A stretch of 64,000 nt of DNA from Escherichia coli (GTDB lineage: Bacteria > Pseudomonadota > Gammaproteobacteria > Enterobacterales > Enterobacteriaceae): the NCBI RefSeq assembly GCF_001677475.2, contig NZ_CP015229.1; one strand, 5' to 3'. A model generated the notes under the pieces. The model was given only the letters and a program-made list of their open reading frames with translations, ran no database searches and had not been told where the DNA came from. The translations under genes were made by a program, and so were the position numbers. Of this stretch, positions 25,791 through 47,583 are shown in pieces. Numbering within the stretch: the stretch's first letter is position 1; each line of letters opens with the position of its first letter.

Positions 25791-25799
25791 GGAGCGGAT

Positions 25800-27428: not shown

Positions 27429-27468
27429 AAAGCAAACTATGGCAATGTTTCGTTGGTTATACCTGGTG

Positions 27469-27744
27469 CTAGCGATAAATATCCGCGCTGGCGTGCATAT
27501 TGCCGTTACTCCCCGGTTCCCGCATTAGAATCACGTGGTAGTACGTTGCGCCCTGCGCATCTGTCTTTTCATTTAATGCCTGACGTGCTTCACTTTCAGT
27601 GGCGAAGTTATGGTTGATATAAATCACGCCTAAGCTTTGCACATCGTCCATATTTCTGGCCTGGTGGTTATTAATTTCAATGGCTGCCCATGTATTTGCA
27701 CTTAGCAAAAGCACAGCCAGAAGGGCTAAAATACGACTGAACAT
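27469..27744 (-). CDS. yjfY: YjfY (DUF1471/YdgH-BhsA-McbA-like small periplasmic protein)
   Basis: 91 aa from MFSRILALLAVLLLSANTWA (signal peptide). Confidence 0.75.
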   Translation of the reverse strand: MFSRILALLAVLLLSANTWAAIEINNHQARNMDDVQSLGVIYINHNFATESEARQALNEKTDAQGATYYHVILMREPGSNGNMHASADIYR

Positions 27745-27949
27745 AGATACCTCCTCAACGGCTGACTTTGTGTGCTCTCCTCTGTGATGCTCTTCTGATT
27801 TAATTTTAATCAATGATAAAGAAGTTGATGGTGACCATTTCTGATGCAGTTGTTCAAAAAAACACCATGATGAAGTGTGATGAACTTCAAATCAGCGTGT
27901 TAGTACGATTTGGTGAAGGATGAGATTTATTTGTCGGCTGGCCTTGAGT

Positions 27950-28466
<517 letters not shown>

Positions 28467-28472
28467 TTTCTG

Positions 28473-29019
<547 letters not shown>

Positions 29020-29048
29020 TCGGTCACGGTCCATTAATACGACTTTGA

Positions 29049-29510
<462 letters not shown>

Positions 29511-29533
29511 TTCGTTATTCAACGAGACGTAAA

Positions 29534-29570
29534 AACGCCGACCACTGGTCGGCGTTTTGCTTTCTATTTT
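29534..29570. terminator. Bidirectional rho-independent terminator (rplI / yjfZ)
   Basis: AACGCCGACC-actg-GGTCGGCGTT flanked by A-run on the left and T-rich tract on the right. Confidence 0.65.
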
Positions 29571-29580
29571 TCGTCAGGTA

Positions 29581-30375
29581 TTAGTTTCGCAAGTAGATCC
29601 ATTCACCATTCTCTTGTGTCCATAATTCAGGATGGTTTGCTGGCGTTAGATGCATACGATCACTCCTTATGTCTCGGTCCTGCGGCACTCGCTCGAAACC
29701 CAAACCCGAGTAGATTGCTGCTGAACTTGATAAGGAACGCAGACCAATTTTCAAATCATGGGGTAAATCAGAATACGCGTTTAGCAATGCAGCAATGATG
29801 AATCCGAGGGCATTAGAAACGCCTGTAACAGTGCGAAGTTGGTCGATATAAAGATCGATTGTTGGTAGTTCAGATGACCAGCAATTAGGCATTTGGGCAG
29901 GAAGGGTTACAACGTATCCTATCGTTTGGCCGGTATAGTCTGGAGTACCATAACCTGGACCCAAAACAACCTCGTGTATTGTGTATTTACTGTTGGGTTC
30001 GAAGGATTCGACATCTTGCAATAAATATTTCAGTTCTGCGGTTAACCTCGCACCCGCGTAAGCTTTATTGTATTTCTGGGCGTGAATATTATCTAATGTA
30101 GCTTCATGGTTCCATCCAAAAGAATTATCACCATTCATTGTTATTCCATCGTAAGCATTACACCTCGTCGCTAACTTATTGAATGCTTGCCAGCCTGAGA
30201 GATCTAGTTTGTGGATCTCAACAGTATGTCTGCCATCGCAATTATGGTCTCTTCCACGATTTGAAAGTAATGTAGCGCGTGCGTATTGATGAAATTTTAA
30301 TTTTACTGGTTTGTCGGTGGACGAAAAACGGGGTGAATATGCAGGAAATGAATAAATAGTGGTTGGTAATGTCAT
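29581..30375 (-). CDS. yjfZ: uncharacterized protein YjfZ
   Basis: 264-aa ORF convergent with rplI, matching K-12 position and length from memory; no motif recognised. Confidence 0.6.
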   Translation of the reverse strand: MTLPTTIYSFPAYSPRFSSTDKPVKLKFHQYARATLLSNRGRDHNCDGRHTVEIHKLDLSGWQAFNKLATRCNAYDGITMNGDNSFGWNHEATLDNIHAQKYNKAYAGARLTAELKYLLQDVESFEPNSKYTIHEVVLGPGYGTPDYTGQTIGYVVTLPAQMPNCWSSELPTIDLYIDQLRTVTGVSNALGFIIAALLNAYSDLPHDLKIGLRSLSSSAAIYSGLGFERVPQDRDIRSDRMHLTPANHPELWTQENGEWIYLRN

Positions 30376-30645
30376 TGTATCGTTGCCTGTTTAATGTTTT
30401 TATAAATATCTCAGCTGAATGTTTACAGAATAAAGAATCGATATTAATAAAAATAAGTTTGTTTTCTGAAGTAGTGAAAATAGCGGATGGTGAAAGATAT
30501 TAATATCAAAAATCGCTCATTGTGGATATAACGATGCAGCAGGGAGGGGGGATATGATTGACAACGCGTTGGTAAGCGAGGTTCGATAACTCAAGCTTCT
30601 TTAAAAACGCCATAACCTCAATTATAGCGTTTTTATTTAAAATAA

Positions 30646-31923
30646 TTAGTGGGTAGCTAACTGTACTTGTGGTTCTTCATCTTTAACTTTGATAAGCGTC
30701 CACAACGCAATAGCACCAATAATGTCAAAGAAAGCCAGGGCAATAAAGAACGGCGCGAAGCCGATAATGTGAACGAATGCCCCGATGAACAGGTTGAAAA
30801 TCAACTGACCGCTCCACGCACAGGCTCCTGCCATACCCACTGCGGTAGCTACTTCGTCCTTTTTGAACAGATCGCCACCCAGAGTTGCTGCTACAGTAGA
30901 AAGACATTGATGCGAGAACGCGCCAATACTAATCAGTAATACGGCAATGTAGGGATTTTCGACAATACTCACCAGACCAATCGTCATCATAATGACGGCT
31001 GCAATAGTGAAGGTAATTCTTCGTGAGTTAATTAAACTCACGCCGCGATCGTGGAAGAACTTCGCGACAAAACCACTGGCTAAACAGCCGAGATCGCCCA
31101 GCAGGAAAGGCAGCCAGACGAACATGGCAATTTCTTTCAGGCTAAAATGCAGCGTTTCGACGAAGAAAATCGGCACCCAGAAGTTAATGGTTCCCCATGC
31201 CGGGTCTGCGAGAAAACGCGCGATGCCAATCCCCCAGAAATTACGTTGGCTGAGGATATGCTTGATTGACGTTTTTTCTTTCTTATCTGTTTTAAGATGC
31301 TGTTCTTGCCCTGATTCAATATAGTGGCGCTCTTCATCAGAAAGGCGTTTGGCATCTTTCGGATCTTTATAACAAAAGAACCAAAATAAAGCCGCGAGCA
31401 AAGCAAGGCTACCTGAAACAATAAACGCAAATTGCCAGCTATGAAACATAATGCACCAGGCAATCAACGGTGGAGCAAGCATCGCGCCGAGTGAGGTGCC
31501 CATATTGAAAACACCTGTCGCCACGCCACGCTCTTTTGCCGGAAACCATGTTGATGCGGTTTTTACACCTGCCGGAATTGCCGACGCTTCGCTGAAACCC
31601 ATCAGGGCGCGCATAAATGCCAGACCTGACCATGTTCCGGTTAGTGCATGGCCCATTGTCGCCAGGCCCCAAATTGCGGCACATATCGCAAAACTTAACT
31701 TCAGACCTACGGTATCAATAAAGAAGCCCATTACCGGTTGCCCTAATGTATAGGCCAACTGGAATGCACTGACAATCCATGAATATTGTTCTTTGGTTAT
31801 TCCGGTTGTCTCCATAATCGTTGGAGCCGCAATACCTAACGCCGTTCTGTCCAGATAATTGATTACAGTGATAAAGCATACGAGGGCAATCATATGCCAT
31901 CGATAATTCTTTATTTTATTCAT
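30646..31923 (-). CDS. MFS transporter, anion:cation symporter (ACS) type (hexuronate/galactonate/tartrate-permease-like)
   Basis: 425 aa, about 12 hydrophobic segments, N-terminal INYLDRTALGIAAP motif; AAGG SD 7 nt upstream. Confidence 0.75.
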   Translation of the reverse strand: MNKIKNYRWHMIALVCFITVINYLDRTALGIAAPTIMETTGITKEQYSWIVSAFQLAYTLGQPVMGFFIDTVGLKLSFAICAAIWGLATMGHALTGTWSGLAFMRALMGFSEASAIPAGVKTASTWFPAKERGVATGVFNMGTSLGAMLAPPLIAWCIMFHSWQFAFIVSGSLALLAALFWFFCYKDPKDAKRLSDEERHYIESGQEQHLKTDKKEKTSIKHILSQRNFWGIGIARFLADPAWGTINFWVPIFFVETLHFSLKEIAMFVWLPFLLGDLGCLASGFVAKFFHDRGVSLINSRRITFTIAAVIMMTIGLVSIVENPYIAVLLISIGAFSHQCLSTVAATLGGDLFKKDEVATAVGMAGACAWSGQLIFNLFIGAFVHIIGFAPFFIALAFFDIIGAIALWTLIKVKDEEPQVQLATH

Positions 31924-32015
31924 TTTTAAACCTTTTAATTATATTAATAAACCCTGGTTGTTGGTATTTCCATGTAATAGGCAATAAAAATCAGGTACAG
32001 AGAAAATATTGAAAA

Positions 32016-34088
32016 TTATTGTGTGTAAATGTCTCCCTTTAAAAAGTCTGGCCAGTTTTTTTCAAAGTAAATACCGTTAATACACGGTTGCATACGTAAA
32101 GACTTTACTTCGGTAATAAAAGAACCTTGCGAATATTGAATTGTTAATTTGTGATTTTTATCTTCAGCGAGTTCAGAGCGAAAACGCCATTCTTCTTTTA
32201 CGCCGCGACGAGTTTGTGGTAGGCATTTGCCTTGTGGATCAATAACCATCCGCGCCCCACGACTGCCGCCACCAGCATCAATATAATGCGTTAATTGTGT
32301 TAATACCGCGGCAGAAGTCAGCGCCATATGCCGCCACATAAACAGCTCGGAAACTTCACCCACATGTTTGATTGCCAATCCATGCCGTTGGACAAATTCG
32401 TTCAATAGCAGGGCATCGCGAGTGGCGCGTCGGACTTTATCGGCATGGCAAATAAATCCCGCATAGTCAGACATTCGTGCCTGAATTTTTTCTCTCACAA
32501 CCGACAACGGCATCCCGGTCCCGTTATCGTGCGCCTGAGTAATGATCTCTCTTATAGAAGCCAGTGCCGGAGCTGCCAGCTGTGCTATATCTCCATCAAT
32601 ATTCCGCTTTTGCGTGCAACCAATAAAACGTGCCAGACGCACGGCAAAAACCTGCCCGGCATTCAATGCCGCACCACCAGGGCGAGTGACGCCGTGTGTG
32701 CCAGCAACTTCCCCCACTGCAAAACAACCGGGCAGAGATGTTTGTCCCCAGATATCCACTTCAATGCCGCCATTCATATGCTGATTATTCATGGCAAACT
32801 GCAATGGCTGCGTGGTGAGATCGTAACCGTGCATCTTATACAGCGAGATAGACAGCGGATTCATTCGTTGCAGTCGTTCGATGGGCGATGGCGCCAGGGC
32901 GTCGTTATTTTCCAGATACGCGCGAACGTCGTCGTCCAGTCGTTCTAATGAGAATGGCAGGTCACCCGGCACAGGTTCAGGATTGCGATTGAAATCCATA
33001 AATACCTGACGCCCTGATTGCTGCTCTTGCGCCACCGCCATATCTAACAAGCTGGAGCCAAAATCCATTACCCGCGTGGCGTGGAACGGCCACTGATAGC
33101 CTTTACGGAAGATGTTTGAAGCCAGCTCCTGGGTGGTGCGATAGTAATCTGCGAGGAAGTTATACTCGTTGCCCTCGGCATCCACGGAATAGATATATGG
33201 GATCACTTGTACATAGGTGCCGGACAAATTCCACGGAAACGTGCTGCGCGGCGTGCCTATACCAAACTGGCTTTCGGTCAGATTAGTTAGTGTCAGGCCT
33301 TCCTCCAGCGCCAGCCCCAGCGAGCCAAAACATTTGTGTGGGTACACACTGTCGCGATAAAGCTCGCCCGGCCCGCCTGTTGCCAGTACCACATTGGGCG
33401 CAGTCACAATTGCCAGCCCCCACGGGTTATGGGCGCGGGAACCGGTTGCGAGGATAGCCCCGGCCACACGATCTTCGCCGTTTTCACCGCGTTGATGCAG
33501 CAGTTTAATCACCGTTGCACTGGTCAACAGTGGGATGGCGAGGCGCTGCACTTCTTCGAGCAATACTTTCACCATCAGACGAGAAGTGCGCGGCCCACAG
33601 GAGGTTGCGCGTCCGGCTTCGTCATGGTCGGTCTGATAACGGAGAATTGCACCATAGCGATCTTCCGGTAATTCCAGACCGAGATATTGCAGCCCGCCAA
33701 GGGTATGTAGGGAACCGACCGCTTCGACATACGCCGTGTCGTGATCCATCGCACCGCCGCTCGCCAGTGCTTCAGCAAGTTTTGCGAAGTTATCGCCGTT
33801 GCCCGCCGTTGCGGCGGTAAACAGCGTCTGTTTATCGGAACCGGAGCAGGCCGATGTTCCCATGTATAACCCGGCGGTGGCGATTAGCACATTTTGCTGG
33901 CGACGTTTCAGTTCAACCGCCGCACGTAATCCTGCCGCGCCGCTACCAACGACCAGAGCATCTGTTTGCCAGAGCGGGTAATCAACACCGTCCACCGTGA
34001 CAATTGACGTTGGCTCTGCTGACACAAAACCCTTCGGGAAAGTGACGTGCGTCAGCGCATCGAGGATGGCGTCATCAGTCTGGCTCAT
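32016..34088 (-). CDS. FAD-dependent oxidoreductase, fumarate-reductase/succinate-dehydrogenase flavoprotein-like, with extra C-terminal region
   Basis: 690 aa; N-terminal dinucleotide fold VVGSGAAGLRAAVEL; start overlaps upstream gene stop (ATGA). Confidence 0.7.
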   Translation of the reverse strand: MSQTDDAILDALTHVTFPKGFVSAEPTSIVTVDGVDYPLWQTDALVVGSGAAGLRAAVELKRRQQNVLIATAGLYMGTSACSGSDKQTLFTAATAGNGDNFAKLAEALASGGAMDHDTAYVEAVGSLHTLGGLQYLGLELPEDRYGAILRYQTDHDEAGRATSCGPRTSRLMVKVLLEEVQRLAIPLLTSATVIKLLHQRGENGEDRVAGAILATGSRAHNPWGLAIVTAPNVVLATGGPGELYRDSVYPHKCFGSLGLALEEGLTLTNLTESQFGIGTPRSTFPWNLSGTYVQVIPYIYSVDAEGNEYNFLADYYRTTQELASNIFRKGYQWPFHATRVMDFGSSLLDMAVAQEQQSGRQVFMDFNRNPEPVPGDLPFSLERLDDDVRAYLENNDALAPSPIERLQRMNPLSISLYKMHGYDLTTQPLQFAMNNQHMNGGIEVDIWGQTSLPGCFAVGEVAGTHGVTRPGGAALNAGQVFAVRLARFIGCTQKRNIDGDIAQLAAPALASIREIITQAHDNGTGMPLSVVREKIQARMSDYAGFICHADKVRRATRDALLLNEFVQRHGLAIKHVGEVSELFMWRHMALTSAAVLTQLTHYIDAGGGSRGARMVIDPQGKCLPQTRRGVKEEWRFRSELAEDKNHKLTIQYSQGSFITEVKSLRMQPCINGIYFEKNWPDFLKGDIYTQ

Positions 34089-35626
34089 GCGTCCTCCATT
34101 GGCGTAAACAGGCTACTTTCCATCAGGCGCGGCTGGTTGATAATTGGACGGAAAGCCATGAACGGCAGAATGTCGCGGTCAATCTCCACGCCCGGCGCGA
34201 TTTCAATTAATTCAACGCCTTCTGCCGTTAACTGAAACACCGCGCGTTCAGTGATATACAACACTTCCTGACCGCTGTGCTGTGCGTAGGCGGCGCTAAA
34301 AGTGATTTTTTCCACCTGAGTAACCAGTTTAGGGATTTGACCTGACTGGGCGATATGCAAGCCATCTGGCGTTACATCAATCTTGCTGCCTTTGGCGTCG
34401 AACGTGCCGCAGAACACCACCTTACGGGCGTTTTGCGCAATTTCGAGAAATCCGCCGGGGCCAATCAGATTGCCATTGAGATGGGAGACGTTGACGTTAC
34501 CGTACTGATCCATCTCTCCCATGCCGAGGAAGGTGATATCGATCCCTCCGCCACTGTAGAACTCAAATTGATCGAGTGATGGAATAATGGCATCGGCGTT
34601 GCGGGCGCAGCCGAAAAACGCATCATCCAGCATCATACCGTTATGCACGCCTTGCTCGACGCTCAGCCATAAACTTTGGTAAGGCACGCCTTCGCGCAGC
34701 GCTACTCCTGGAATGCCGCCGGGAATACCAAAGCCAAAGTTGGTTGAAGCGCCAGCTACCAGTTCGCGTGCTGCCCGACGGGCAATCAGGCGACGTACCG
34801 GATGACTAACCAGTTCAATAGCGTCGTTAGAACTCAGACGGCGATGTTGGCCGCTGATGGTCAGGTCGTAACCGCCAAGATAGGTTTGTGGCTGTTCGCG
34901 GTGTTCAACGATGCCATCAACCAGAATGCCCGGTAATTTGACTCGGCGTGGTTCAATCGCGCCAGCTTCCAGCACATCGCGTACCTGTACAAACACTTTG
35001 CCGCCGCTGTTGTGTGCTGCCAGCGCCATGGAATAGCTATCCATATCAATCGCTTCTTCTTCAAGGCTGACGTTGCCCCGAGGATCGGCATAAGTGCCAC
35101 GCAAAATCGCGTAATCGACTTTGAAAGGGCGATAACGAAGTTTGGTTTCACCGTCGATTTCAATCAGTTCTACCAGGTCGTCGGTAGTGCATTCATTCGA
35201 CTTACCGCCGCCATTGCGTGGATCAACAAACGATCCCAGCCCAACGTGGGTAAAAAGCCCCGGACGTCCGGCGCCGATCTCCCGTAGCAGTGCCTGAATC
35301 ACGCCACCAGGAAAACAATAGGCTTCAATCGCGTTATTTTTTACCAGCGCCTGCATTTTGGGTGACCAGGTAAAGTGTCCGGCAATAATGCGTTTGAGCA
35401 TTTCAGCATGAGCGAAGCGGTTCGTGCCTTTGCAGTCGCGATCGCCAATGCCCAGCGAGTGGATTAATGTCAGATCGCGCGGGTGTCCGGTTTGCAGGAA
35501 GCGCGCTTCAATGGCTGCCAGAATATGGTCGGCTTCCACCATGCCGCCGCCGTTACCGCTAATGGCAATGGTTGCGCCATCCTGAATTTGCGCCGCCAGT
35601 GCCTCGGCGGTTGTTATCTTACGCAT
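34085..35626 (-). CDS. CoA-transferase, family I-like (YdiF/propionate-CoA-transferase-like)
   Basis: 513 aa; overall resemblance to two-domain family I CoA-transferases; assignment by eye, needs HMM confirmation. Confidence 0.6.
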   Translation of the reverse strand: MRKITTAEALAAQIQDGATIAISGNGGGMVEADHILAAIEARFLQTGHPRDLTLIHSLGIGDRDCKGTNRFAHAEMLKRIIAGHFTWSPKMQALVKNNAIEAYCFPGGVIQALLREIGAGRPGLFTHVGLGSFVDPRNGGGKSNECTTDDLVELIEIDGETKLRYRPFKVDYAILRGTYADPRGNVSLEEEAIDMDSYSMALAAHNSGGKVFVQVRDVLEAGAIEPRRVKLPGILVDGIVEHREQPQTYLGGYDLTISGQHRRLSSNDAIELVSHPVRRLIARRAARELVAGASTNFGFGIPGGIPGVALREGVPYQSLWLSVEQGVHNGMMLDDAFFGCARNADAIIPSLDQFEFYSGGGIDITFLGMGEMDQYGNVNVSHLNGNLIGPGGFLEIAQNARKVVFCGTFDAKGSKIDVTPDGLHIAQSGQIPKLVTQVEKITFSAAYAQHSGQEVLYITERAVFQLTAEGVELIEIAPGVEIDRDILPFMAFRPIINQPRLMESSLFTPMEDA

Positions 35627-35635
35627 ACAATTTCC

Positions 35636-36412
35636 TTAGTGATTATGGAAGCTCACGCTACTTTTTTCGGCAAATGCCTGCGTCGCCTGCTGGCAATCCT
35701 GAGTGGCGGACATTAATCCAGCCAGTAACTGGTGTGGGTATTCAGCGTGTTTATTTTCCAGTGCCAGAATCAGCTGCTTAATATGCGCCAGTGCCACCGG
35801 ACCACATTTTTCCAGCTGCGCTAACTGGTTCGCCATCCAGCTTTCCACCTGTTCTTTTTCTACTACTTCATCAATTAAATTCGCCGCCTGGGCTTCATGC
35901 GCCGTCAGACGTTTACCTAGCATCAGCATCTGGCGACCGACCACTGGGCCGACCTGATTAATCACGCGTTCAATGCCCATCCAGCCAGGCACCATGCCGA
36001 GCATGACTTCCGGGTTAGAAAATTTCGCGCTGGGGCGAGCGATTCGAATATCGCAGCACAAGGCAAGTTCAATACCGCCGCCGATGGTATGACCGTTGAG
36101 ATTCGCAACCGTTAATTGCGGTAAATTGCGCAGGCGATTAAAAACGTCATTGCCGCGTTTAATCCATTTTCTGCCCATATCTAATGGCGAATAGGCCGAC
36201 CACGATTTAATATCACCGCCCGCACAAAAGAATTTATCGCCGATTGCCGTTAATTCGACTAATCGTAATGTGGTGTCGTTTTCAATTTCATTTAAATAAT
36301 GGTCGAGAGATTCAATCATCTCTTCGTTAATAGCATGACATTTCTCTTCACGGTTCAACGTCAGGCGGCAGGAAGCCGCCGCTCTGCTGAACAGAACGGG
36401 TTGGTCACTCAT
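35636..36412 (-). CDS. enoyl-CoA hydratase/isomerase (crotonase fold)
   Basis: 258 aa; crotonase signatures FCAGGDIKSW and GGGIELALCCD, plus PE motif (SNPEVMLGMVPG). Confidence 0.8.
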   Translation of the reverse strand: MSDQPVLFSRAAASCRLTLNREEKCHAINEEMIESLDHYLNEIENDTTLRLVELTAIGDKFFCAGGDIKSWSAYSPLDMGRKWIKRGNDVFNRLRNLPQLTVANLNGHTIGGGIELALCCDIRIARPSAKFSNPEVMLGMVPGWMGIERVINQVGPVVGRQMLMLGKRLTAHEAQAANLIDEVVEKEQVESWMANQLAQLEKCGPVALAHIKQLILALENKHAEYPHQLLAGLMSATQDCQQATQAFAEKSSVSFHNH

Positions 36413-36421
36413 GATTATTCC

Positions 36422-37264
36422 TTAGCAATAATTCGCGATGCGATCGACGCTAATATCCAGCGTGTTGTTAATATCTTTCTGCCACCAGTACGGTGAGAAT
36501 ATTTCCAGTTCAATAGCGCCATTAAATCCGGCGTTTTCAACCAGTCGACGAATTGACGGAATATTTATCACGCCATCTCCCGGCATTCCCCGGTCATTGA
36601 CCAGATCGGTGGTCGGCACTAACCAGTCGGAAACATGAAACGCGAGAATACGTTTTCCGGCGCGCAGGAGCTGGCTGGCCAGATCCGGATCCCACCAGAC
36701 ATGGTAAACATCCACAGCCACGCCGAGGCCAAATTCGCCATCGGGATCGAGTTCATCACACCAGTCCAGCGCCTGGCGTAACGTGCACAGGCAAGAGCGA
36801 TCGGCGGCGGTCATTGGGTGCAGTGGCTCCAGCGCAATCGGCACGCCAACGTCTTTCGAATGTGGCAGTAACTGGCGTATCCCTTGTTTCACCTGTTCCC
36901 GTGCTTCATACAGATCTTTTGTGCCCTGCGGTAACCCGCCAACCACCTGCATATAACAGGCGGCGTTCAGCACCGCTGCGTCGTCCAGCGCCCGGCGGTT
37001 ATCATCAATTGCCAGTTTGCGTTCCGCCAGCGTCGGCGCGGTGTAGTAGGTGCTACGGCATAAACCGGAAACGCGCATGTTATTGACGGCAAGCTGGCGG
37101 GCGATCTGCTGAAGATCTTCACCCTGCAACTCTCTGCGCCAGGGGGCGATCGCACCGATACCGCGTGCGGCACAGGCATCAATAATGGCGGGTAGCGGCG
37201 TTTTATAGCCCAGTGTTGCGGTATTGATACTGAATAAATCCGGGCGTTGTAACAGATCTCTCAT
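36422..37264 (-). CDS. xylose-isomerase-like TIM-barrel protein (sugar phosphate isomerase/epimerase or dehydratase family)
   Basis: 280 aa; resemblance to AP-endonuclease-2/xylose-isomerase-like TIM barrels by eye; needs HMM confirmation. Confidence 0.55.
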   Translation of the reverse strand: MRDLLQRPDLFSINTATLGYKTPLPAIIDACAARGIGAIAPWRRELQGEDLQQIARQLAVNNMRVSGLCRSTYYTAPTLAERKLAIDDNRRALDDAAVLNAACYMQVVGGLPQGTKDLYEAREQVKQGIRQLLPHSKDVGVPIALEPLHPMTAADRSCLCTLRQALDWCDELDPDGEFGLGVAVDVYHVWWDPDLASQLLRAGKRILAFHVSDWLVPTTDLVNDRGMPGDGVINIPSIRRLVENAGFNGAIELEIFSPYWWQKDINNTLDISVDRIANYC

Positions 37265-37273
37265 GATTCAGCC

Positions 37274-38065
37274 TCAGAAGCGCGGCATACTTAAGCCGCC
37301 GTCGATGGCGACCGCCTGACCACAGGTGTAAATCAGTTTACCTTCCGCCATCGCGCGGACGGTGGAGGCAATATCAGCCGGATAACCCCAACGTCCCCAC
37401 GGCACCAGACCTTTGGCAATCAGTTCGTCGTAATAAGCCGTTGCTGGAATAGTCATATCGGTTTTGATGAGACCAGGGCGCACTTCATAGACGCCAATTT
37501 GTTCGTTGCAAAGGCGAGCAGCAAACAGACGAGCAGCGGCAGAAACGGCGGTTTTGGCAATTGTGTATTCGCCGCGATTCATCGCCAGCATGATGGCGTT
37601 GATGGAACTGACAAAAATAATTGAGCGGTGCGGGAATTCTGTTTCTGGTTTTGGCTGTGCGAGCAGACGTTTACTGAATGCCTGTGCAAGGAAGAACGGT
37701 GCGCGGGTGTTAATGGCAATATTTTGGTCGAAGCTGTCTGGTTCCAGGTCGAGAAGGTCACCGCGTTTTTTCACTGAAATGCCTGCGTTGTTGAGCAGGC
37801 AGTCCAGACGTCCCCACTGGTTTTGCGCTGCGTCGAGCATCTCTTCATGCAGGGAGAGATCGCCAACATCGGCAGGGAAGCAAATCACTTCCACGCCTTC
37901 CGCCAGACATTCTTGTTGTGTGACATGTAATTTTTCAACGCTATCGGCATCCGGACGATCATTAATCAGCAGATTAAATCCGCCACGCGCAAGCTCCAGC
38001 GCACAGCCCTTTCCAATACCACGAGCGGCTCCGGTAATCACGGCAACAGGACGAGTGGATTTCAT
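37274..38065 (-). CDS. short-chain dehydrogenase/reductase (SDR)
   Basis: 263 aa; TGAARGIGKG cofactor motif, NNAG, catalytic Ser and YxxxK (YTIAK). Confidence 0.85.
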   Translation of the reverse strand: MKSTRPVAVITGAARGIGKGCALELARGGFNLLINDRPDADSVEKLHVTQQECLAEGVEVICFPADVGDLSLHEEMLDAAQNQWGRLDCLLNNAGISVKKRGDLLDLEPDSFDQNIAINTRAPFFLAQAFSKRLLAQPKPETEFPHRSIIFVSSINAIMLAMNRGEYTIAKTAVSAAARLFAARLCNEQIGVYEVRPGLIKTDMTIPATAYYDELIAKGLVPWGRWGYPADIASTVRAMAEGKLIYTCGQAVAIDGGLSMPRF

Positions 38066-38133
38066 ACAATAGCTCTCTTTTTTTGAATTTTGTTTCCTTA
38101 GTGATGATTAGCTTGCGACTGGAGGATAAAAAG

Positions 38134-38155
38134 ATCAACCATCTAGTTGGTTGAT
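38134..38155. promoter_or_regulatory. candidate TetR-family operator (perfect 8-6-8 palindrome)
   Basis: ATCAACCA-tctagt-TGGTTGAT in the 212-bp divergent intergenic region between the SDR operon and the TetR gene. Confidence 0.45.
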
Positions 38156-38277
38156 ATGCGATGACGATCACAGGACATTTGATAACCTGATGAAAGTACA
38201 AGTTTTTGCCCTTTTTTCTGAAGCTGAAATCAAATCAGGTTATGATAGTCACCACGAAGAGGTCGTGGGGAAGCGTT

Positions 38278-38925
38278 ATGTATATTGATACCAGCAACGT
38301 ACAGAGCCTGAAGGAAAAGCTGCTGTTATGCGCGGTTAATGAATTTGCCGAATATGGTTATGAAGGGGCCAGGGTCGATAATATTGTTAAGTCTGCGGGG
38401 TGTAGTAAACAGACGGTTTATCACCACTTTGGTAATAAAGAAAATTTATTTATTGAAGTACTGGAATATACCTGGAACGATATTCGAAAAAAAGAAAAGG
38501 CCCTTGATTTCTCAGATCTTCCGCCACAAAAAGCCATTGAGAAAATTATTGATTTTACATGGGATTATTATATTGCTAATCCCTGGTTTTTAAAAATTGT
38601 GCATAGTGAAAATCAAAGTAAAGGTGTGCATTATGCAAAATCACAGCGTCTCTTAGAAATTAACCATGCGCACTTGCAGTTAATGGAATCCTTATTGGAG
38701 GAAGGGAAGAAACACAATATTTTTAAGCCAGATATCGACCCATTGCAGGTGAATATTAATATTGCTGCGCTTGGGGGATATTATTTGATCAACCAGCATA
38801 CGCTTGGCCTGGTTTATCACATCAGTATGGTTTCACCCCAGGCACTGGAAGCCAGACGTAAGGTCATCAAAGAGACGCTCCTTAGCTGGCTTTTGGTTGA
38901 CCCCTCATCTACCGCGCACGAATAA
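38278..38925 (+). CDS. TetR/AcrR-family transcriptional regulator
   Basis: 215 aa from ATG 38278 (GGGGAAG SD upstream); N-terminal [31 protein letters not shown]; track ORF is N-extended. Confidence 0.8.
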
Positions 38926-39547
38926 AACTGCCATCCGGCTGACGGGTAAACAGGACCTGTTGATTATTCCCCGTATCAATGGTTAAGCCCGTCACCACGC
39001 CGCTGGCGTTCTGGCGGATTTTCACCATCTGCCCGTTTTGCAAATTACTCAGCGGCTTATCCGCGCCTTCTACCTGCGCCATTGCATAGACATCGGTAGC
39101 GGGCAGTCCGTGGTCGCGGAACAGCTGCGCCATCGTTTTACCGGGTTCGACACGGTAAGAGCGCCATTGATTATCAATTCCGCTATCTGGCTGGAATGGT
39201 TGCGTTTGGGTGGTTTGCGGCTGCTCTTCTGGCTGGCCTTCCTGTATTGGTTCTGGAGCGACCGGGGCCACCTGATCAGGATCATTTTGTGGCGTAACTA
39301 GCTGCGCCCGCAGCTGTTCTTCTGTCGGCAGTTGTGATTGCGACTGAATATCTAACTGCGCTTCACGCGTCACCACCGGCGCGTTGGGCGTATCATCAGA
39401 TGGAAGCAGAAATCCGACCACCAATACAATGGCGGCAATAATGATCCCCCGACGATGCATCGGCGGCAGCGGGTCCATGAAGCGAAAATTGTCCGGCGCG
39501 TGCCAGACTTTCTCCAGGGTTGGTTTTAGTTCAAAGCGCCCGGGCAT
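38909..39547 (-). CDS. ytfB: OapA/LysM-domain cell-division protein YtfB
   Basis: 212 aa from [18 protein letters not shown], strong AGGAGG SD; Pro/Gln-rich linker and C-terminal OapA-like domain. Confidence 0.85.
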
Positions 39548-39764
39548 GGTTTCCTCCTGCTCCGCGTCTTGTTCCTCAATCATAGCCTATGAATAAGCTA
39601 ACGCTATGATGTCCGTGGTAAACCCGCCTTTATTATATTCATACGGGATATTGCTATTGTTTCTTTTTCCCCGGGATTTGTCATCATTCCCGCGACAAAG
39701 TTTTACCCAAAGAAGTGTGGCTGATATGCTGCCCGCTACTTTATACCCTAAGAAAGGAAATACG

Positions 39765-40385
39765 ATGACCACCCCAACTTTTGACACCATCGAAGCGCAA
39801 GCAAGCTACGGCATTGGTTTGCAGGTAGGGCAACAACTGAGTGAATCTGGCCTGGAAGGGCTGCTGCCAGAAGCACTGGTTGCAGGCATTGCTGATGCGC
39901 TGGAAGGCAAACATCCGGCTGTTCCGGTTGATGTGGTGCACCGCGCGCTGCGTGAAATCCACGAACGCGCCGATGCCGTTCGTCGTCAGCGTTTCCAGGC
40001 GATGGCTGCTGAAGGTGTGAAATACCTGGAAGAAAACGCCAAAAAAGAAGGTGTAAATAGCACCGAATCTGGCCTGCAATTCCGCGTGATCAACCAGGGT
40101 GAAGGCGCAATTCCGGCACGTACCGACCGCGTTCGTGTTCATTACACCGGAAAACTGATCGACGGCACCGTGTTTGACAGCTCCGTCGCTCGCGGCGAGC
40201 CAGCTGAATTCCCGGTTAACGGCGTGATCCCTGGCTGGATTGAAGCACTGACTCTGATGCCGGTAGGTTCTAAATGGGAACTGACTATCCCGCAGGAACT
40301 GGCATATGGCGAGCGTGGCGCAGGCGCGTCCATCCCTCCGTTCAGCACCCTGGTGTTTGAAGTCGAACTGCTGGAAATCCTCTAA
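39765..40385 (+). CDS. fklB: FKBP-type peptidyl-prolyl cis-trans isomerase
   Basis: 206 aa from [20 protein letters not shown] domain at C-terminus. Confidence 0.9.
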
Positions 40386-40692
40386 GCAGCGCATTCTGTT
40401 CCCCTCGAGCCAGAGGGGAGCAGGCATTCAGCAATAAACCCTTCAGTTTGCCAAACGGCGCTATTTTGTGTTGCAAAGACCCCGTAAGCGTGTATTTTTG
40501 TGAGCTGTTTCGCGTTATCACCGTGATATGACACTCACTTTAAACATAAAATTAACATTAGATCTAAATCTTAGTATTCATCCCGCGTATTGTTACCTAA
40601 TATCGATGAGTCCCGATACAGATTCGTCGTATCATAGACTGACTAAAGGCCGTAGAGCCTGAACAACACAGACAGGTACAGGAAGAAAAAAC

Positions 40693-42105
40693 ATGGTAGA
40701 TCAGGTAAAAGTCGTTGCCGATGATCAGGCTCCGGCTGAACAGTCGCTACGGCGCAATCTCACAAACCGACATATTCAGCTTATTGCCATTGGCGGTGCC
40801 ATTGGCACAGGGTTGTTTATGGGGTCCGGCAAAACGATTAGCCTTGCCGGGCCGTCGATCATTTTCGTTTATATGATCATTGGTTTTATGCTCTTTTTCG
40901 TGATGCGGGCAATGGGGGAATTGCTGCTTTCGAATCTGGAATACAAATCTTTTAGTGACTTCGCTTCCGATTTACTCGGGCCGTGGGCAGGATATTTCAC
41001 CGGCTGGACTTACTGGTTCTGCTGGGTTGTAACCGGTATGGCAGACGTGGTGGCGATCACGGCTTATGCTCAGTTCTGGTTCCCCGATCTCTCCGACTGG
41101 GTCGCCTCGCTGGCGGTGATAGTGCTGCTGCTGACGCTCAACCTCGCCACCGTGAAAATGTTCGGTGAGATGGAGTTCTGGTTTGCGATGATCAAAATCG
41201 TCGCCATTGTGTCGCTGATTGTCGTCGGCCTGGTCATGGTGGCGATGCACTTTCAGTCACCGACCGGTGTGGAAGCGTCATTCGCGCATTTGTGGAATGA
41301 CGGCGGCTGGTTCCCGAAAGGTTTAAGTGGCTTCTTTGCCGGATTCCAGATAGCGGTTTTCGCTTTCGTGGGGATTGAGCTGGTAGGTACAACAGCTGCG
41401 GAAACCAAAGATCCAGAGAAATCACTGCCACGCGCGATTAACTCAATTCCGATCCGTATCATTATGTTCTACGTCTTCGCGCTGATTGTGATTATGTCCG
41501 TGACGCCGTGGAGTTCGGTAGTCCCGGAGAAAAGCCCGTTTGTTGAACTGTTCGTGTTGGTGGGTCTGCCTGCTGCCGCCAGCGTGATCAACTTTGTGGT
41601 GCTGACCTCTGCCGCTTCTTCCGCTAACAGCGGCGTCTTCTCTACCAGTCGTATGCTGTTTGGTCTGGCGCAGGAAGGTGTGGCACCGAAAGCGTTCGCT
41701 AAACTCTCTAAGCGCGCAGTACCCGCGAAAGGGCTGACCTTCTCTTGTATCTGTCTGCTCGGCGGCGTGGTGATGCTGTATGTGAATCCCAGCGTGATTG
41801 GCGCGTTTACGATGATTACAACCGTTTCCGCGATTCTGTTTATGTTCGTCTGGACGATTATCCTTTGCTCGTACCTGGTGTATCGCAAACAGCGTCCGCA
41901 CCTGCATGAGAAATCAATCTACAAGATGCCGCTCGGCAAGCTGATGTGCTGGGTATGTATGGCATTCTTTGTGTTCGTGGTCGTGCTGCTGACACTGGAA
42001 GATGATACCCGCCAGGCGCTGCTGGTTACCCCGCTGTGGTTTATCGCTCTGGGGCTGGGCTGGTTGTTTATTGGTAAGAAGCGGGCTGCTGAACTGCGGA
42101 AATAA
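40693..42105 (+). CDS. cycA: D-serine/D-alanine/glycine APC-family transporter
   Basis: 470-aa polytopic membrane ORF. Confidence 0.93.
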   Translation: MVDQVKVVADDQAPAEQSLRRNLTNRHIQLIAIGGAIGTGLFMGSGKTISLAGPSIIFVYMIIGFMLFFVMRAMGELLLSNLEYKSFSDFASDLLGPWAGYFTGWTYWFCWVVTGMADVVAITAYAQFWFPDLSDWVASLAVIVLLLTLNLATVKMFGEMEFWFAMIKIVAIVSLIVVGLVMVAMHFQSPTGVEASFAHLWNDGGWFPKGLSGFFAGFQIAVFAFVGIELVGTTAAETKDPEKSLPRAINSIPIRIIMFYVFALIVIMSVTPWSSVVPEKSPFVELFVLVGLPAAASVINFVVLTSAASSANSGVFSTSRMLFGLAQEGVAPKAFAKLSKRAVPAKGLTFSCICLLGGVVMLYVNPSVIGAFTMITTVSAILFMFVWTIILCSYLVYRKQRPHLHEKSIYKMPLGKLMCWVCMAFFVFVVVLLTLEDDTRQALLVTPLWFIALGLGWLFIGKKRAAELRK

Positions 42106-42120
42106 CCGCATTATCATGCT

Positions 42121-42145
42121 GGATGGCGCAATGCCATCCAGCTTT
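42121..42145. terminator. Bidirectional terminator between convergent cycA and ytfE
   Basis: GGATGGCgcaaTGCCATCC hairpin followed by AGCTTTT. Confidence 0.55.
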
Positions 42146-42149
42146 TAGA

Positions 42150-42812
42150 TCACTCACCCGCCAGTGCGCGCGGGAACAGCACATTATTTTCCAGACTAAT
42201 GTGATCCATCAGGTCATCAATCAATTCATTGATACCGTTATACATCGCTTTCCAGGTGGTGCAGGCTTCCGGCGGCGGTGTGACATTATTGGTGGTGTGT
42301 TTAATCACTTCCAGCAGTTCGCCCGCTTCATCGTGCTCGCTTTCCATTACGCTGATTGGCCCCATTGCCTGGCTGCCCATGCCTTGTTTGATCATCGGGA
42401 AGAGGATCTGCTCTTCTTTCATCATGTGGCTGGAAAGCTCTTCATGCAGCATAGTCAGGTATTTTGTCAGCCCTTTTGGCACGCTCGGTTTGTCGGCGTG
42501 AACGCGCTCGACTTTAGTCGCTTGCAGGATCAGCTCCGGCAGTTGCTCGCGGTGACGATCGTGGTAGCGCACGATGATATGGTCGATGATTTCTGCCAGC
42601 GGGGCGCTACGCCAGTCTTTCTCAATCGGTTGTTCAGCAAGCTTTGCCAGCTCAGCTTCAATGACCTCAACATCCAGCTCTTTACGTGCCGCCGCACGCG
42701 CCAGCGTTTGCTTACCGCCGCAGCAGTAATCCATATCATATTTACGAAACAGCGCTGAAGCGCGAGGAATAGAGAGCGCCAGTTCACCTAAAGGTTGGTC
42801 GCGATAAGCCAT
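42150..42812 (-). CDS. ytfE: iron-sulfur cluster repair di-iron protein YtfE (RIC)
   Basis: 220-aa ORF with hemerythrin-like His/Glu residues. Confidence 0.9.
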
Positions 42813-42919
42813 AGCTGATACCTCATTCTTAATAAGATAAGATGTATTTTAAATGCATCTTTAAGGCGAATGCTATAACCCTTACGTAGCAGAGGCTTAT
42901 TTAACTCACAGCCAGCATG

Positions 42920-43894
42920 TCAACTTTCTGAGACAGATTCAGTTAAAGGTTTTTCCGGTTTTGCTCTGACTGCAATGACCACGCCAACCACTAACAGCGC
43001 GATACCGCTCAGCGTCATCAGCGGCGGCATTTGCTGGCGGAGTAAAAAGGTGTACAGCAAACCTGCCAGTGTTTCGAAAACAATCAGCGGCCCGAGAATC
43101 ACTGTCGGTAATCGCTGGCTGGCGACGTTCCAGCAGAGTGCGCCGACCCATGAGCAAAGCACGGCTATCGCAATCATCAGACTAATAAACACCAGCGGGC
43201 GGGGGCCAAAGGGTAGGGAGAAGTCCGGCGTTTGCGTATTCAGCCAGTAACAAGCGACGAGATAGCCGATAAGTGAAACCGGCAGTGTGACCAGCGCCTG
43301 CGCCGTTGCCCACATCATCGGATGTTTGTCGGGATTTTCCCGCAGCCAGCGGGCGTTGCGCAGGGCATACCATGCCCAGCAGACCACGGAAACTAACGCC
43401 AGCACGATGCCAGAGGTATAACGTGCCCAGTCAAAATCGGGGAGTCCGTGGTTTAACTCAGCAATATTCACGCACGCCAGGCCGATGCCAATACAAATCA
43501 GTGCCGGGGCGAGTCTTCCCCACGCGAGTTTGCCGTCGCGCTGGCTATAAAGCAGATTGGCAAAGACAGGAATCACCACCGGCAGGGTGCCGATAATCAT
43601 CGTGGAAACAGGCGCGCCAGTACGTTGAATGGCACTGGCAAGGCAGAAGTAATAAATGAGGTTGCCCATCATAGTGAGCATCAAGGCGGTAAGCCAGTCC
43701 CGACGCGCCAACTGACGCAAACGCACGCGTCCCAGCCAGGCAATGGGTAGCGCAATTAACCCTAACGCCAGATAACGCCCCATCGACTGCAACATCGCCG
43801 GGTATTCCGGCACAATCAACGGCCCGACAAAAATAAGCCCCCACATCAACCCTGCTAACAGGGCGTACAGCACGCCGCTAATCATTACTGGCAT
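42920..43894 (-). CDS. ytfF: EamA/DMT-family inner-membrane transporter YtfF
   Basis: About 10 hydrophobic segments; start could be ATG 43894 or 43885. Confidence 0.8.
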   Translation of the reverse strand: MPVMISGVLYALLAGLMWGLIFVGPLIVPEYPAMLQSMGRYLALGLIALPIAWLGRVRLRQLARRDWLTALMLTMMGNLIYYFCLASAIQRTGAPVSTMIIGTLPVVIPVFANLLYSQRDGKLAWGRLAPALICIGIGLACVNIAELNHGLPDFDWARYTSGIVLALVSVVCWAWYALRNARWLRENPDKHPMMWATAQALVTLPVSLIGYLVACYWLNTQTPDFSLPFGPRPLVFISLMIAIAVLCSWVGALCWNVASQRLPTVILGPLIVFETLAGLLYTFLLRQQMPPLMTLSGIALLVVGVVIAVRAKPEKPLTESVSES

Positions 43895-43992
43895 CCATTG
43901 ATCTGTCAGAAGAAAGTTCAGGAAGCAGACATGATTGCTCCCGGCATCCCGTCATTATCAGAGAGGATGCGGGAGGATGCCACTTTAATTAA

Positions 43993-44853
43993 CTAGTTAT
44001 TAACATTAAAAAGATTGCTTACGCTTTCGGCTAACGTTGTCGTCGGGCGACCAATCAGTTTACTCAGCGTTTTGCTGTCATCAAACAGACCGCCTTTTGA
44101 CGCGCCAACGTCAGAATCCGCCAGCATATCCGCCAGTCCGTCGGGCAGTCCGACGCTTTTCAGCGCAGCGGCGAAATCGGCTTCGCTCAGATTTTGATAG
44201 GTAACCTGTTTGCCGCTCTGTTTGGTCAGCTCTGCCGCTAACTGTGTCAACGTCCAGGCGCTGTCGCCCGCCAGTTCGTAAACCTTGCCTTCGTGACCGG
44301 CTTCGCTAATCACGCGCGAGGCAGCGGCTGCATAATCTGCCCGCGTTGCTGAGGCAATTTTGCCATTGCCCGCCGCACCGATAAATACGCCGTGTTCCAC
44401 TGCTGCCGGGGCGCTGGCGAGGTAGTTTTCGGTGTACCAGCCGTTGCGCAGAAGGGTGTAAACGATGCCAGAATCAGCCAGCATTTTCTCCGTCTCGATG
44501 TGCTCATCGGCGAGGCCGAGCGGGGAGGTATCTGCATGTAGCAGGCTGGTATAAGCGATAAATTTCACGCCAGCCGTCTTTGCGGCATTAATAACATTAC
44601 GATGCTGCGGGGCACGTTGACCCACTTCGCTGGAAGAGATCAGCAGTAGTTTTTCCACTCCCTGAAGTGCAGATGTCAGTGCGGCTTCATCGCCGTAGTC
44701 AGCCTGACGCACGGTAATGCCTTGTGCTGCCAGGGCCTGGGCTTTTGCCGGATTACGAACGATAGCCACTATTTGGCTGGCAGGAACAGTTTTCATCAAG
44801 GATTCAATAACATAGTGACCAAGTTGGCCAGTGGCACCAGTAATAGCGATCAT
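43993..44853 (-). CDS. qorB: NmrA-like NAD(P)H:quinone oxidoreductase
   Basis: 286-aa ORF with N-terminal Rossmann motif ITGATGQLG. Confidence 0.85.
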   Translation of the reverse strand: MIAITGATGQLGHYVIESLMKTVPASQIVAIVRNPAKAQALAAQGITVRQADYGDEAALTSALQGVEKLLLISSSEVGQRAPQHRNVINAAKTAGVKFIAYTSLLHADTSPLGLADEHIETEKMLADSGIVYTLLRNGWYTENYLASAPAAVEHGVFIGAAGNGKIASATRADYAAAASRVISEAGHEGKVYELAGDSAWTLTQLAAELTKQSGKQVTYQNLSEADFAAALKSVGLPDGLADMLADSDVGASKGGLFDDSKTLSKLIGRPTTTLAESVSNLFNVNN

Positions 44854-44941
44854 GGGAAGTCTCCATCGTTTTGTCTTGTGTTTAAATACGCTAACACCTA
44901 AACTTACTTTTAGTAAGTACGCACAAAAAGGTAAGTATGAA

Positions 44942-45322
44942 ATGAGTCAGGTTAGCCTGTCGCAACAACTGAAAGAGGGAAATCTCTTTGCGGAACAGTG
45001 CCCGTCGCGCGAGGTGTTGAAACACGTCACCAGCCGTTGGGGGGTATTGATTCTGGTGGCGCTACGCGAAGGCACTCATCGCTTTAGCGACCTGCGGCGC
45101 AAAATGGGCGGGGTGAGTGAAAAGATGCTTGCGCAGTCGTTACAGGCGCTAGAGCAGGATGGTTTTCTTAACCGTATAGCGTATCCGGTGGTGCCGCCGC
45201 ATGTGGAATATAGCCTCACGCCGTTGGGCGAGCAGGTGAGCGAAAAGGTTGCTGCACTGGCGGACTGGATTGAGTTGAATTTGCCCGAGGTGTTGGCGGT
45301 GCGGGATGAACGTGTGGCATAA
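44942..45322 (+). CDS. ytfH: HxlR-type transcriptional regulator YtfH
   Basis: 126 aa from MSQVSLSQQLKEG; divergent from qorB. Confidence 0.85.
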   Translation: MSQVSLSQQLKEGNLFAEQCPSREVLKHVTSRWGVLILVALREGTHRFSDLRRKMGGVSEKMLAQSLQALEQDGFLNRIAYPVVPPHVEYSLTPLGEQVSEKVAALADWIELNLPEVLAVRDERVA

Positions 45323-45323
45323 C

Positions 45324-45420
45324 TGCCGGATGCGCTGCGCTTATCTGGTCTACGGTGCATGGCTTGTAGGGCGGATAAGATGCGCCAGCATCGCATCCGC
45401 CAATAAATGCCGGATGCGGT
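45324..45420. repeat. REP elements
   Basis: GCCGGATGCGCTGCGCTTATCTGG and GGCGGATAAGATGCGCCAGCATCGCATCCGCC. Confidence 0.55.
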
Positions 45421-45450
45421 TGATGATTTATAGGCCGAAAAAGAAGTGTA

Positions 45451-47394
45451 TTACTTACTCAAATCCACCTGATAAATCGCAAACCCGATATCATCGGTCG
45501 CGACTTTATTCATCGGATATTGCCCTTTCTCTTTAATAAACGCTGCGGCTTTATCTGATGGAGAGGTTTCGAAACGGATATCCAGTTTCTTATCGCCAGC
45601 AATCGGTGCTAAACGCCAGTTGTTATCTGCCGCCGGGTGAATTTCCCCCGCACGTTTCGACTCATCAGCAATCCACGCTGCCAGCACCGAGCGGTTCTCA
45701 TCCGGTGAAGCAAAAGCGATATGGCTGTCGCCCGTACCAGCAAATTTGCCGCCGTAAGCGCGATAGTTATTGGTGGCAACGAGGAACATGGCGTTCGGAT
45801 CAATGGGTTTACCGTTAAAGGTCAGGTTCTTAATCCGCTCTGCATTGGCATTAACCACCTGACATTCACCGTCATAACGGGCGGGTTGGGTAACATCAAT
45901 CTGATAATTCACACCATCAATAACATCAAAGTTATAAGTGCGGAAACCATCCCAGTTGATGAGTGACTGTGGTTTCGTGCTGTTAGGATCAATCTGGTTA
46001 AACTGTCCGGCGGAGCACTCCAGCCACTCTTTCACCTCTTTACCGCTGGCTTTCACCACAATCAGCGTATTGGGGTAGAGATAAAGATCGGCGGCATTAC
46101 GGAAGGTCAACTGGCCTTTTTCCACCTCCACATAGCTTGCCGGGTCATTTTTGCGACCACCAACTTTAAACGGTGCGGCAGCTGAAAGCACCGGCAGTTT
46201 TGCCAGATCCGGATCGCCCTGAATGTAATGTTCGACATACGCTTTTTGCGCGTTGTTCACGACTTGCACGGTCGGATCGTCCTGCACCAGCGCCAGATAG
46301 CTATACATATTGTCGGCAGATTTACCGATTGGCTTGCTGACAAACTGGCGTGTGGCATCGTGATCGGCTTTGAGTGTTTCTACCAGCTTGCTATCTTCCG
46401 CCGCGAGGGATTTTTTATTAGCGATGTCGTAAATCGGCCGTGCTTCCGCTTTCGCCTGCATCACCTGCCATTTACCGCTGTCATTACTGAGTTACAAGTC
46501 GACCACACCAAGATGATCGCCCCACATGCCCGGCATTACCGCCGGAACACCATTCAGCGTGCCTTTCGCGATATCAGCCCCTTCGATATCAGCAAAATCT
46601 TTACCTGGGAAAACGGCGTGAGCATGGCCAAACATAATGGCGTTAACGCCCGGAATTTCACTGAGGTAATAAACTGAGTTTTCCGCCATCACTTTATACG
46701 GATCGGCAGACAGCCCGGAATGCGCCAGAACGACAACGAGATCGGCACCTTTCTCACGCATTTCAGGCACGTATTTGCGCACAGTTTCTGTTATATCGTT
46801 AACGGTGACTTTGCCGGACAAATTGGCTTTATCCCACCCCATAATCTGCGGCGGCACCACGCCAATATAGCCAATCTTTAACGTCTGTTTTTTTCCGTCT
46901 TTATCGACCACTTCGGTGTCTTTAATTAAATACGGTGTAAACATGGGCTGTTTGGTTTTTGCGTCGATGACGTTGGCATTTACATAAGGGAATTTCGCTC
47001 CCGCCAGCGCATTTTTCAGGTAATCCAGACCGTAGTTAAACTCGTGGTTGCCAAGCGTGCCGACGGTATAGTCCAGCGTATTTAATGCCTTATAGACCGG
47101 GTGAATATCGCCTGCTTTTAAACCTTTCGCCGACATGTAATCTGCCAGCGGACTCCCCTGAATCAAATCGCCGTTATCGACCAGTACGCTGTTTTTCACT
47201 TCATTGCGGGCATCGTTAATCAGGCTTGCGGTACGTACCAGTCCGAATTTTTCCGTAGCGGTGTCTTTGTAATAATCGAAATCCATCATGTTGCTATGCA
47301 GATCAGTGGTTTCCATGATACGCAGATCGACCGTCGCTGCATTTACACTGGCGGCAATCAGCGTGGCCAGGAGCGTTGCGCTAAACTTAATCAT
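45451..47394 (-). pseudogene. cpdB: 2',3'-cyclic-nucleotide 2'-phosphodiesterase/3'-nucleotidase, interrupted by one in-frame TAA
   Basis: Track ORFs 46492..47403 and 45451..46464 are in the same frame; together 647 codons with one TAA at 46492-46494 (..[17 protein letters not shown]..). Confidence 0.8.
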
Positions 47395-47583
47395 CAGGGA
47401 CATCCTTTTATCATCGGGAATACGAAAGAAAAGGGAGAATAAACGTCTTACTTATAGAACAGTGAAGAATGCCACAATTTTACGCTTTGAAAATGATGAC
47501 ACTATCACAGTTGGCGCATTCATTAACGATAGGGTATAAGTAAAACAATAAGTTAACACCGCTCACAGAGACGAGGTGGAGAA

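Follow-up and report, generated by a model that had tools for sequence, protein, structure and literature searches.

The window, a stretch of 64,000 nucleotides of Escherichia coli DNA, holds an intact TetR/AcrR regulator gene placed between ytfB, which it meets tail to tail, and a six-gene operon on the minus strand that diverges from it in the order SDR, TIM-barrel, enoyl-CoA hydratase, CoA-transferase, FAD oxidoreductase and MFS transporter. From left to right, the features of the locus are as follows.

29581–30375, minus strand: yjfZ (DUF2686), the left neighbour, retained in K-12
30646–31923, minus strand: MFS transporter of the anion:cation symporter/D-galactonate-transporter subfamily; a three-gene TRAP transporter stands here instead in other alleles
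32016–34088, minus strand: FAD-dependent oxidoreductase of 690 aa, fumarate reductase/L-aspartate oxidase flavoprotein superfamily
34085–35626, minus strand: fused family-I acyl-CoA:acetate/3-ketoacid CoA-transferase, FadX-like (E = 4e-114, under the equivalog cutoff)
35636–36412, minus strand: enoyl-CoA hydratase/isomerase family gene (NCBIfam)
36422–37264, minus strand: xylose-isomerase-like TIM-barrel gene ('sugar phosphate isomerase/epimerase'; E = 3e-86 to PDB 3ju2/3qc0)
37274–38065, minus strand: SDR '3-ketoacyl-ACP reductase', operon gene 1 (NCBIfam NF009386, 418 bits, cutoff 250)
38066–38277, no strand: divergent intergenic promoter region of 212 bp separating the reductase and TetR genes and lost from K-12
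38134–38155, no strand: 22-bp palindrome ATCAACCATCTAGTTGGTTGAT, an inverted repeat with 11-nt arms and a candidate TetR operator
38278–38925, plus strand: intact TetR/AcrR regulator gene, an open reading frame with an ATG start, 215 aa and a stop codon
38332–38460, plus strand: helix-turn-helix (HTH) DNA-binding domain of the regulator (aa 19–61, Pfam TetR_N), missing from K-12 ytfA, where homology begins only at 38523
38524–38925, plus strand: segment surviving as K-12 ytfA (codons 83–215, with the complete TetR_C_29 ligand-binding/dimerisation domain)
38909–39547, minus strand: ytfB (cell-division/LysM-like protein), with a reading frame extendable to 39583
38909–38925, no strand: 17-bp stretch where the TetR and ytfB coding sequences overlap tail to tail

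Pfam analysis of the 215-aa regulator places a TetR_N HTH (PF00440) at aa 19–61 (E = 6.7e-14) and a TetR_C_29 domain (PF17938) at aa 83–200 (E = 4.6e-30), the latter spanning model positions 1–118 of 119, and in homologous E. coli loci the regulator is likewise annotated as TetR/AcrR. Several NCBIfam TetR models match aa 8–92; no NCBIfam equivalog threshold is passed, the best scores being those for FadR (47 bits, cutoff 200) and AcuR (31 bits, cutoff 247). The nearest solved structure is that of an uncharacterised TetR protein, 3npi (E = 2e-16). The original prediction had described the 3′ end of the regulator as convergent with that of ytfB over 17 bp at 38909–38925, and both the coordinates and the description are correct. 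Eight of ten other loci examined keep this overlap (K-12, ChlosBP-23-1, E69, E. whittamii, E. albertii, SCPM-O-B-8794, Escherichia sp. E1V33 and Klebsiella spallanzanii). It is missing from a divergent O178:H19-type allele, where TetR and ytfB abut (0 bp), and from Entomohabitans, where a 15-bp gap separates them.

Aligned over three genera, the SDR/TetR intergenic region is variable apart from one block, and the palindrome lies inside it. The core block is invariant except for a central A/G change in eight sequences from Escherichia, Klebsiella and Entomohabitans. Its position between divergent genes makes the palindrome at 38134–38155 a typical candidate for a TetR operator. By analogy with the family, a TetR dimer would bind this 22-bp element in the shared promoter region, and the transported carboxylate or its CoA thioester would free the repressor and switch the operon on.

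The operon would encode a beta-oxidation-like catabolic pathway for an organic acid, placed under this ligand-released repressor. As to its function, NCBIfam returns generic families only; the SDR alone among the operon genes passes a named model, itself generically named. PDB sequence matches for the operon proteins are limited to uncharacterised structural-genomics entries or distant flavoproteins, and the entries matched by the TIM-barrel, 3ju2 and 3qc0, represent the uncharacterised Sinorhizobium meliloti protein SMc04130. In literature searches covering ytfA, yjfZ, ytfB and the PDB codes, no description of the operon turned up. Farther afield, a TetR homologue of 38% identity lies within 10 kb of TIM, SDR and CoA-transferase homologues in an Albidovulum metagenome-assembled genome, a neighbourhood that hints at a conserved module.

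We compared this arrangement with that of K-12. In a megablast of 29500–40500 against 5,426 complete E. coli genomes, K-12 MG1655 covered just 27% of the query, and pairwise blastn resolved the K-12 locus into three blocks. The first (K-12 1–2537) corresponds to window 28000–30538 at 98.5% identity; the second (2541–2642) to window 37875–37976 at only about 80%; and the third (2647–6124) to window 38523–41999 at 98.2%, running through ytfB and fklB. The original prediction had placed only a short regulator-like reading frame at this position in K-12, and a truncated TetR reading frame is indeed what stands there: K-12 2648–3049 aligns with window 38524–38925 at 98.4% nucleotide identity, collinearly and in frame, and so does resemble the TetR gene. 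This open frame comprises codons 83–215, the 3′ 62% of the regulator. As judged from the Pfam limits, the K-12 product starts exactly where TetR_C_29 starts, with the HTH gone. K-12 is without TetR codons 1–82, the native start codon, the 212-bp promoter region and the divergent operon. At the level of sequence, K-12 ytfA is shown to be the 3′ stump of the window regulator.

This identification is in part already on record. RefSeq/PGAP annotates K-12 locus 2648–3049 as a 'TetR/AcrR family transcriptional regulator; incomplete; missing N-terminus', a 2025 preprint explicitly calls ytfA a pseudogene (bioRxiv 10.64898/2025.12.20.695731) and a survey of the TetR family lists ytfA as variably present in E. 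coli (PMC6790063). The older literature gives ytfA a size of 108 aa. The pseudogene status of ytfA, and with it the core claim of ordinary gene loss, is already known.

The K-12-type allele differs from the intact one by two deletions with a relic between them.

30546–37878, no strand: deletion 1 of the K-12-type allele, 7,333 bp, with 7-bp microhomology GCAGGGA at 30539–30545 and 37872–37878
37879–37986, minus strand: segment of the reductase gene surviving as a relic in K-12, where it measures 102 nt (2541–2642; about 80% identity)
37987–38527, no strand: deletion 2 of the K-12-type allele, 541 bp, with 8-bp microhomology TCCGCCAC at 37979–37986 and 38520–38527

Deletion 1 sets in 108 nt downstream of the MFS stop codon; with it went the transporter, four of the enzyme genes and the greater part of the gene for the reductase. 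The 5′ end of that gene was lost with deletion 2, as were TetR codons 1–82 and, between the two, all 212 bp of the promoter region with its palindrome. What remains between the deletions corresponds to about codons 27–63 of the reductase; the K-12 block that aligns at about 80% (about codons 30–64) lies antisense to the reductase gene and carries two stop codons. Junction sequences from K-12, O157 and E1V33 keep one repeat copy at each scar junction, slightly mutated, and the K-12 junctions now read CGGGGA and CCAGCCAC. Local matches of equal score also turn up in 10–20% of comparisons between random 50–60-mers of the window; because such scores are not rare by chance, what carries the microhomology argument is that the repeats coincide exactly with the breakpoints. 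The alignments show that the K-12-type allele derives from the intact arrangement through two microhomology-flanked deletions of 7.33 kb and 0.54 kb, and the microhomologies point to replication slippage or illegitimate recombination as the probable mechanism. Deletion endpoints and microhomologies, which the original prediction had proposed to look for, could thus be located, with repeats of 7 and 8 bp. Its proposal that K-12 lost the operon by deletion holds as to the loss; it does not hold as to a single deletion, there being two with a relic between them, nor as to an event in K-12 itself, as the distribution of the scar makes plain below.

The intact arrangement also occurs outside E. coli. 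A tblastn search with the window proteins recovered the order rplI–(MFS or TRAP)–FADox–CoAT–ECH–TIM–SDR / TetR / ytfB–fklB in E. whittamii, in SCPM-O-B-8794 (an E. coli-labelled genome standing as a separate species representative), in K. spallanzanii and in Entomohabitans teleogrylli. In E. albertii the locus ends at a contig end, and the order is seen from FADox to fklB. Protein identities across these species fall in step with those of the flanking genes. Conservation of operon, TetR and ytfB in further Escherichia species and two more genera therefore identifies a long-standing native arrangement, as had been surmised from the convergent overlap. A close TetR match was not returned from most Enterobacteriaceae genera in the species-representative scan; with so few close homologues in other genera, the word 'ancestral' implies many losses or transfer through the conserved flanks.

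The reverse polarity, in which the K-12 arrangement is ancestral and the operon and regulator were gained here as a horizontal island, would accord with the variability of the locus among E. coli strains, with a GC content that ranges from 40% to 57% across it and with the lack of a close homologue in most other enterobacterial genera. Yet an empty site would contain no in-frame 3′ piece of the regulator and no reductase remnant, and the K-12 site has both; chance similarity of stump and relic is excluded by E-values of 1e-15 to 1e-171. Signs of mobility, which the original prediction had named as telling against it, are likewise missing: there is no tRNA in window 25000–45000, no IS or integrase among the annotated genes of the homologous locus and no att-like feature or direct-repeat border at the locus borders of the window, which are ordinary intergenic DNA also present in K-12. 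The same synteny and the same 17-bp overlap recur, moreover, in other Escherichia species and in Klebsiella spallanzanii. We accord a gain at this site virtually no credence. As a class, a horizontally acquired genomic island was rejected on the mobility signatures not found and on the remnants in the 'empty' K-12 site. Loss is supported and insertion rejected.

How widely the scar occurs was gauged with a 251-nt query across both junctions, counting matches that covered at least 80% of it. It is carried by 2,227 of 5,426 complete E. coli genomes (~41%), at identities from 100% down to about 91%, and the intact form by 3,130–3,138 (~58%). A scan of one genome per GTDB species identified the same scar, with both junctions, in Escherichia sp. 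E1V33. Its relic shares three derived substitutions with all E. coli scars (six scar sequences in all), one being a nonsense change, ATTTTTC to ATTATTC. Between K-12 and E1V33 the relic has 17 differences in 102 positions, and its identity to every intact allele is 80–85%. This degree of change fits neutral decay of a fragment that dates from roughly the time when the E. coli and E1V33 lineages parted, and the decayed relic suggests that the loss allele is older than the separation of E. coli from a cryptic Escherichia lineage.

A divergent or foreign allele was also considered as the source of the relic and rejected: no E. coli variant or other species exceeds 85% identity to it, and we read its divergence as neutral decay.

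A second left junction, ACGC (window 30564/37893), about 22 bp from that of K-12, is present in Nord122 and MS14387, whose relics are otherwise the same, nonsense mutation included. This variant means that the history of the scar was not one clean event; it may reflect an independent second deletion, a conversion patch or something else.

These two left junctions invite the reading that the scar arose more than once, independently in E. coli, in E1V33 and in a Nord122-type lineage, the microhomologies being prone to deletion. It would also explain why most differences between the K-12 and E1V33 stumps are synonymous, as would be seen had each stayed part of a functional gene until fairly recently. 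Against such recurrence, all scars sampled have one and the same right junction, every scar row among 60 evenly spaced ones starting at window 38523, and the six scar sequences share the three relic substitutions, one of them a nonsense change that would be impossible in a functional allele. Nor were single-deletion intermediates seen in 60 evenly spaced rows of 5,373 genomes, which held only intact genes or scars. We consider repeated origin improbable. Our strong preference is for a deletion allele that is old and of essentially single origin and that segregates with the intact allele in E. coli, with ytfA as the stump of the TetR gene; we hold this with high confidence. That the presence/absence polymorphism of the operon is itself older than E. 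coli and has been maintained across species boundaries is a tentative extension, and we think it rather doubtful.

Intact alleles are themselves diverse. At the left end of the locus (window 29581–31923) cassettes have been swapped: yjfZ and the MFS gene occupy it in the window and in ChlosBP-23-1, in UTI89 hipBA replaces yjfZ, accompanied by an IS1, and in W4 and SCPM-O-B-8794 (non-coli Escherichia) a three-gene TRAP transporter replaces yjfZ and the MFS gene. yjfZ has been put forward as a signature gene specific to E. coli (PMC11057252); neither E1V33 nor E. whittamii has it, nor do the E. coli alleles of the TRAP and hipBA types, and it is not universal in E. coli. At the right end, a deeply divergent TetR–ytfB allele occurs in about 390–406 E. 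coli genomes, with O178:H19 2012C-4431 as an example. Compared with the window, its TetR is about 83% and its ytfB about 76% identical, with the flanking fklB at 97–98%, and the segment looks introgressed. The island between them (32250–38000) is strongly mosaic, with identities of 85–100% to other E. coli alleles in 250-nt windows; at 33501–34000, for example, no allele compared exceeds 90%, between flanks at 98–100%.

Among the 5,426 complete E. coli genomes, the closest to the window reaches 98.0% over 16 kb of core genes (44000–60000) and 96.1% over the locus (29500–40500). We take the window to come from an outlying E. coli-like lineage that is unrepresented in the 5,426-genome set.

Such mosaicism, with intact alleles at 85–100% and some window segments at no more than 90% to all alleles compared, bears on a further account, in which the E. 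coli ancestor carried the scar, as a fixed or a common allele, and intact alleles came back later from other Escherichia lineages. They would have entered by homologous recombination through rplI/yjfZ and ytfB; the direction of change would be reversed for the window genome, and the identity of the stump would be unaffected. The deeply divergent TetR–ytfB allele of about 390–406 genomes and the changing left-end cassettes (yjfZ, hipBA, TRAP) speak for re-import as well. Long-term co-existence of both alleles, however, fits this evidence equally, and intact alleles form the majority (58%) in E. coli and are present in every other Escherichia species sampled except E1V33. Re-acquisition strikes us as unlikely, and we retain the old deletion allele segregating alongside the intact one.

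The stump itself complicates the account. Between K-12 and E1V33 (its locus 9998–10399) the stumps have a dN/dS of 0.12, and the 133-codon frame is open in both, which would be unexpected if both had been neutral since one ancient deletion. The low dN/dS therefore obliges the single-deletion account to add recombination with intact alleles. Most simply, the stump was probably overwritten, up to the junction, by homologous recombination with co-circulating intact alleles. For the first 54 nt past the junction, the window TetR gene is 100% identical to K-12, and other intact alleles are 94% identical. The mosaic make-up of the whole island also accords with such overwriting.

The same observations could mean that the stump is not dead, either because an HTH-less TetR_C_29 protein is selected across species or because ytfB needs the DNA for its 3′ end. 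A retained stump could act as a free ligand-binding protein. In addition to the open frames and the dN/dS, this reading can cite an RpoD constitutive promoter (TTCACA-16-AATAAA), mapped together with an H-NS site in the K-12 yjfZ–ytfA spacer (PMC3946193), and the finding that CRISPRi of 'pseudogene ytfA' altered expression of dapE and bssS (bioRxiv 10.64898/2025.12.20.695731). These CRISPRi effects, however, could act through the overlapping convergent ytfB. IS609 (IS200/IS605 family; tnpA and insQ/tnpB; about 1.75 kb), moreover, is inserted in the stump after TTTATC, at window 38818, in about three quarters of scars, or roughly 30% of complete E. coli genomes (evenly spaced rows), which makes a retained function unlikely. 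Singletons on the scar branches, six nonsynonymous and two synonymous against 21 and 20, look neutral, although in this small sample the difference is not significant (p = 0.27). A functional stump seems to us very improbable, and we prefer a remnant that recombination has probably refreshed.

The insertion site of IS609 is identical in both left-junction types, and K-12 is without the insertion. The K-12 yjfZ–ytfA spacer (2377–2647) corresponds to window 30376–30538, which in the intact allele lies downstream of the MFS gene.

For work on regulatory networks, K-12 'ytfA' should not count as a transcription factor, because it has neither a DNA-binding domain nor an operator. The real regulon of the intact protein would be the adjoining six-gene operon, kept by about 58% of complete E. 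coli genomes. The detailed anatomy of the scar and its sharing across species are modest additions to what was on record. Their practical value is small, and the locus serves as a worked example of microhomology-flanked operon loss.

In its overall design the regulator resembles the TetR-family local repressors of divergent catabolic or efflux operons, of which B. subtilis FadR/YsiA, AcuR, RutR and AcrR are examples. Like them, it joins an N-terminal TetR_N HTH to an all-helical C-terminal ligand domain, and the short region that separates it from its divergent neighbour contains a conserved palindrome; it differs in staying far under the NCBIfam cutoffs for named TetR regulators. The operon, for its part, recalls short-chain acyl-CoA or beta-oxidation-like clusters, which combine a family-I CoA-transferase of the YdiF/FadX type with a crotonase, an SDR and a flavoprotein. 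It shares these enzyme families and adds a carboxylate transporter (MFS anion:cation symporter or TRAP), a set that would suit uptake of an organic acid, its activation by CoA transfer and then hydration, oxidation and reduction. It is, however, a member of none of the characterised pathways; its flavoprotein belongs to the fumarate-reductase/aspartate-oxidase superfamily, unlike acyl-CoA dehydrogenases, and, unlike short-chain acyl-CoA clusters, it includes an uncharacterised TIM-barrel protein of the SMc04130 type.

K-12 ytfA (b4205) is the closest comparison of all, being the same gene as the window regulator at the same site between yjfZ and ytfB and with the same 17-bp overlap; in its locus the 102-nt reductase relic takes the place of the HTH, the promoter/operator region and the operon. 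As to how that state was reached, the 7- and 8-bp direct repeats of the window at the breakpoints, with one copy left in each scar, are like those of microhomology-mediated deletions of the RecA-independent, slippage type. The K-12-type scar differs from a simple deletion of this kind in that it comprises two adjacent deletions with a relic between them, has since drifted and exists elsewhere in a variant with a second left junction.
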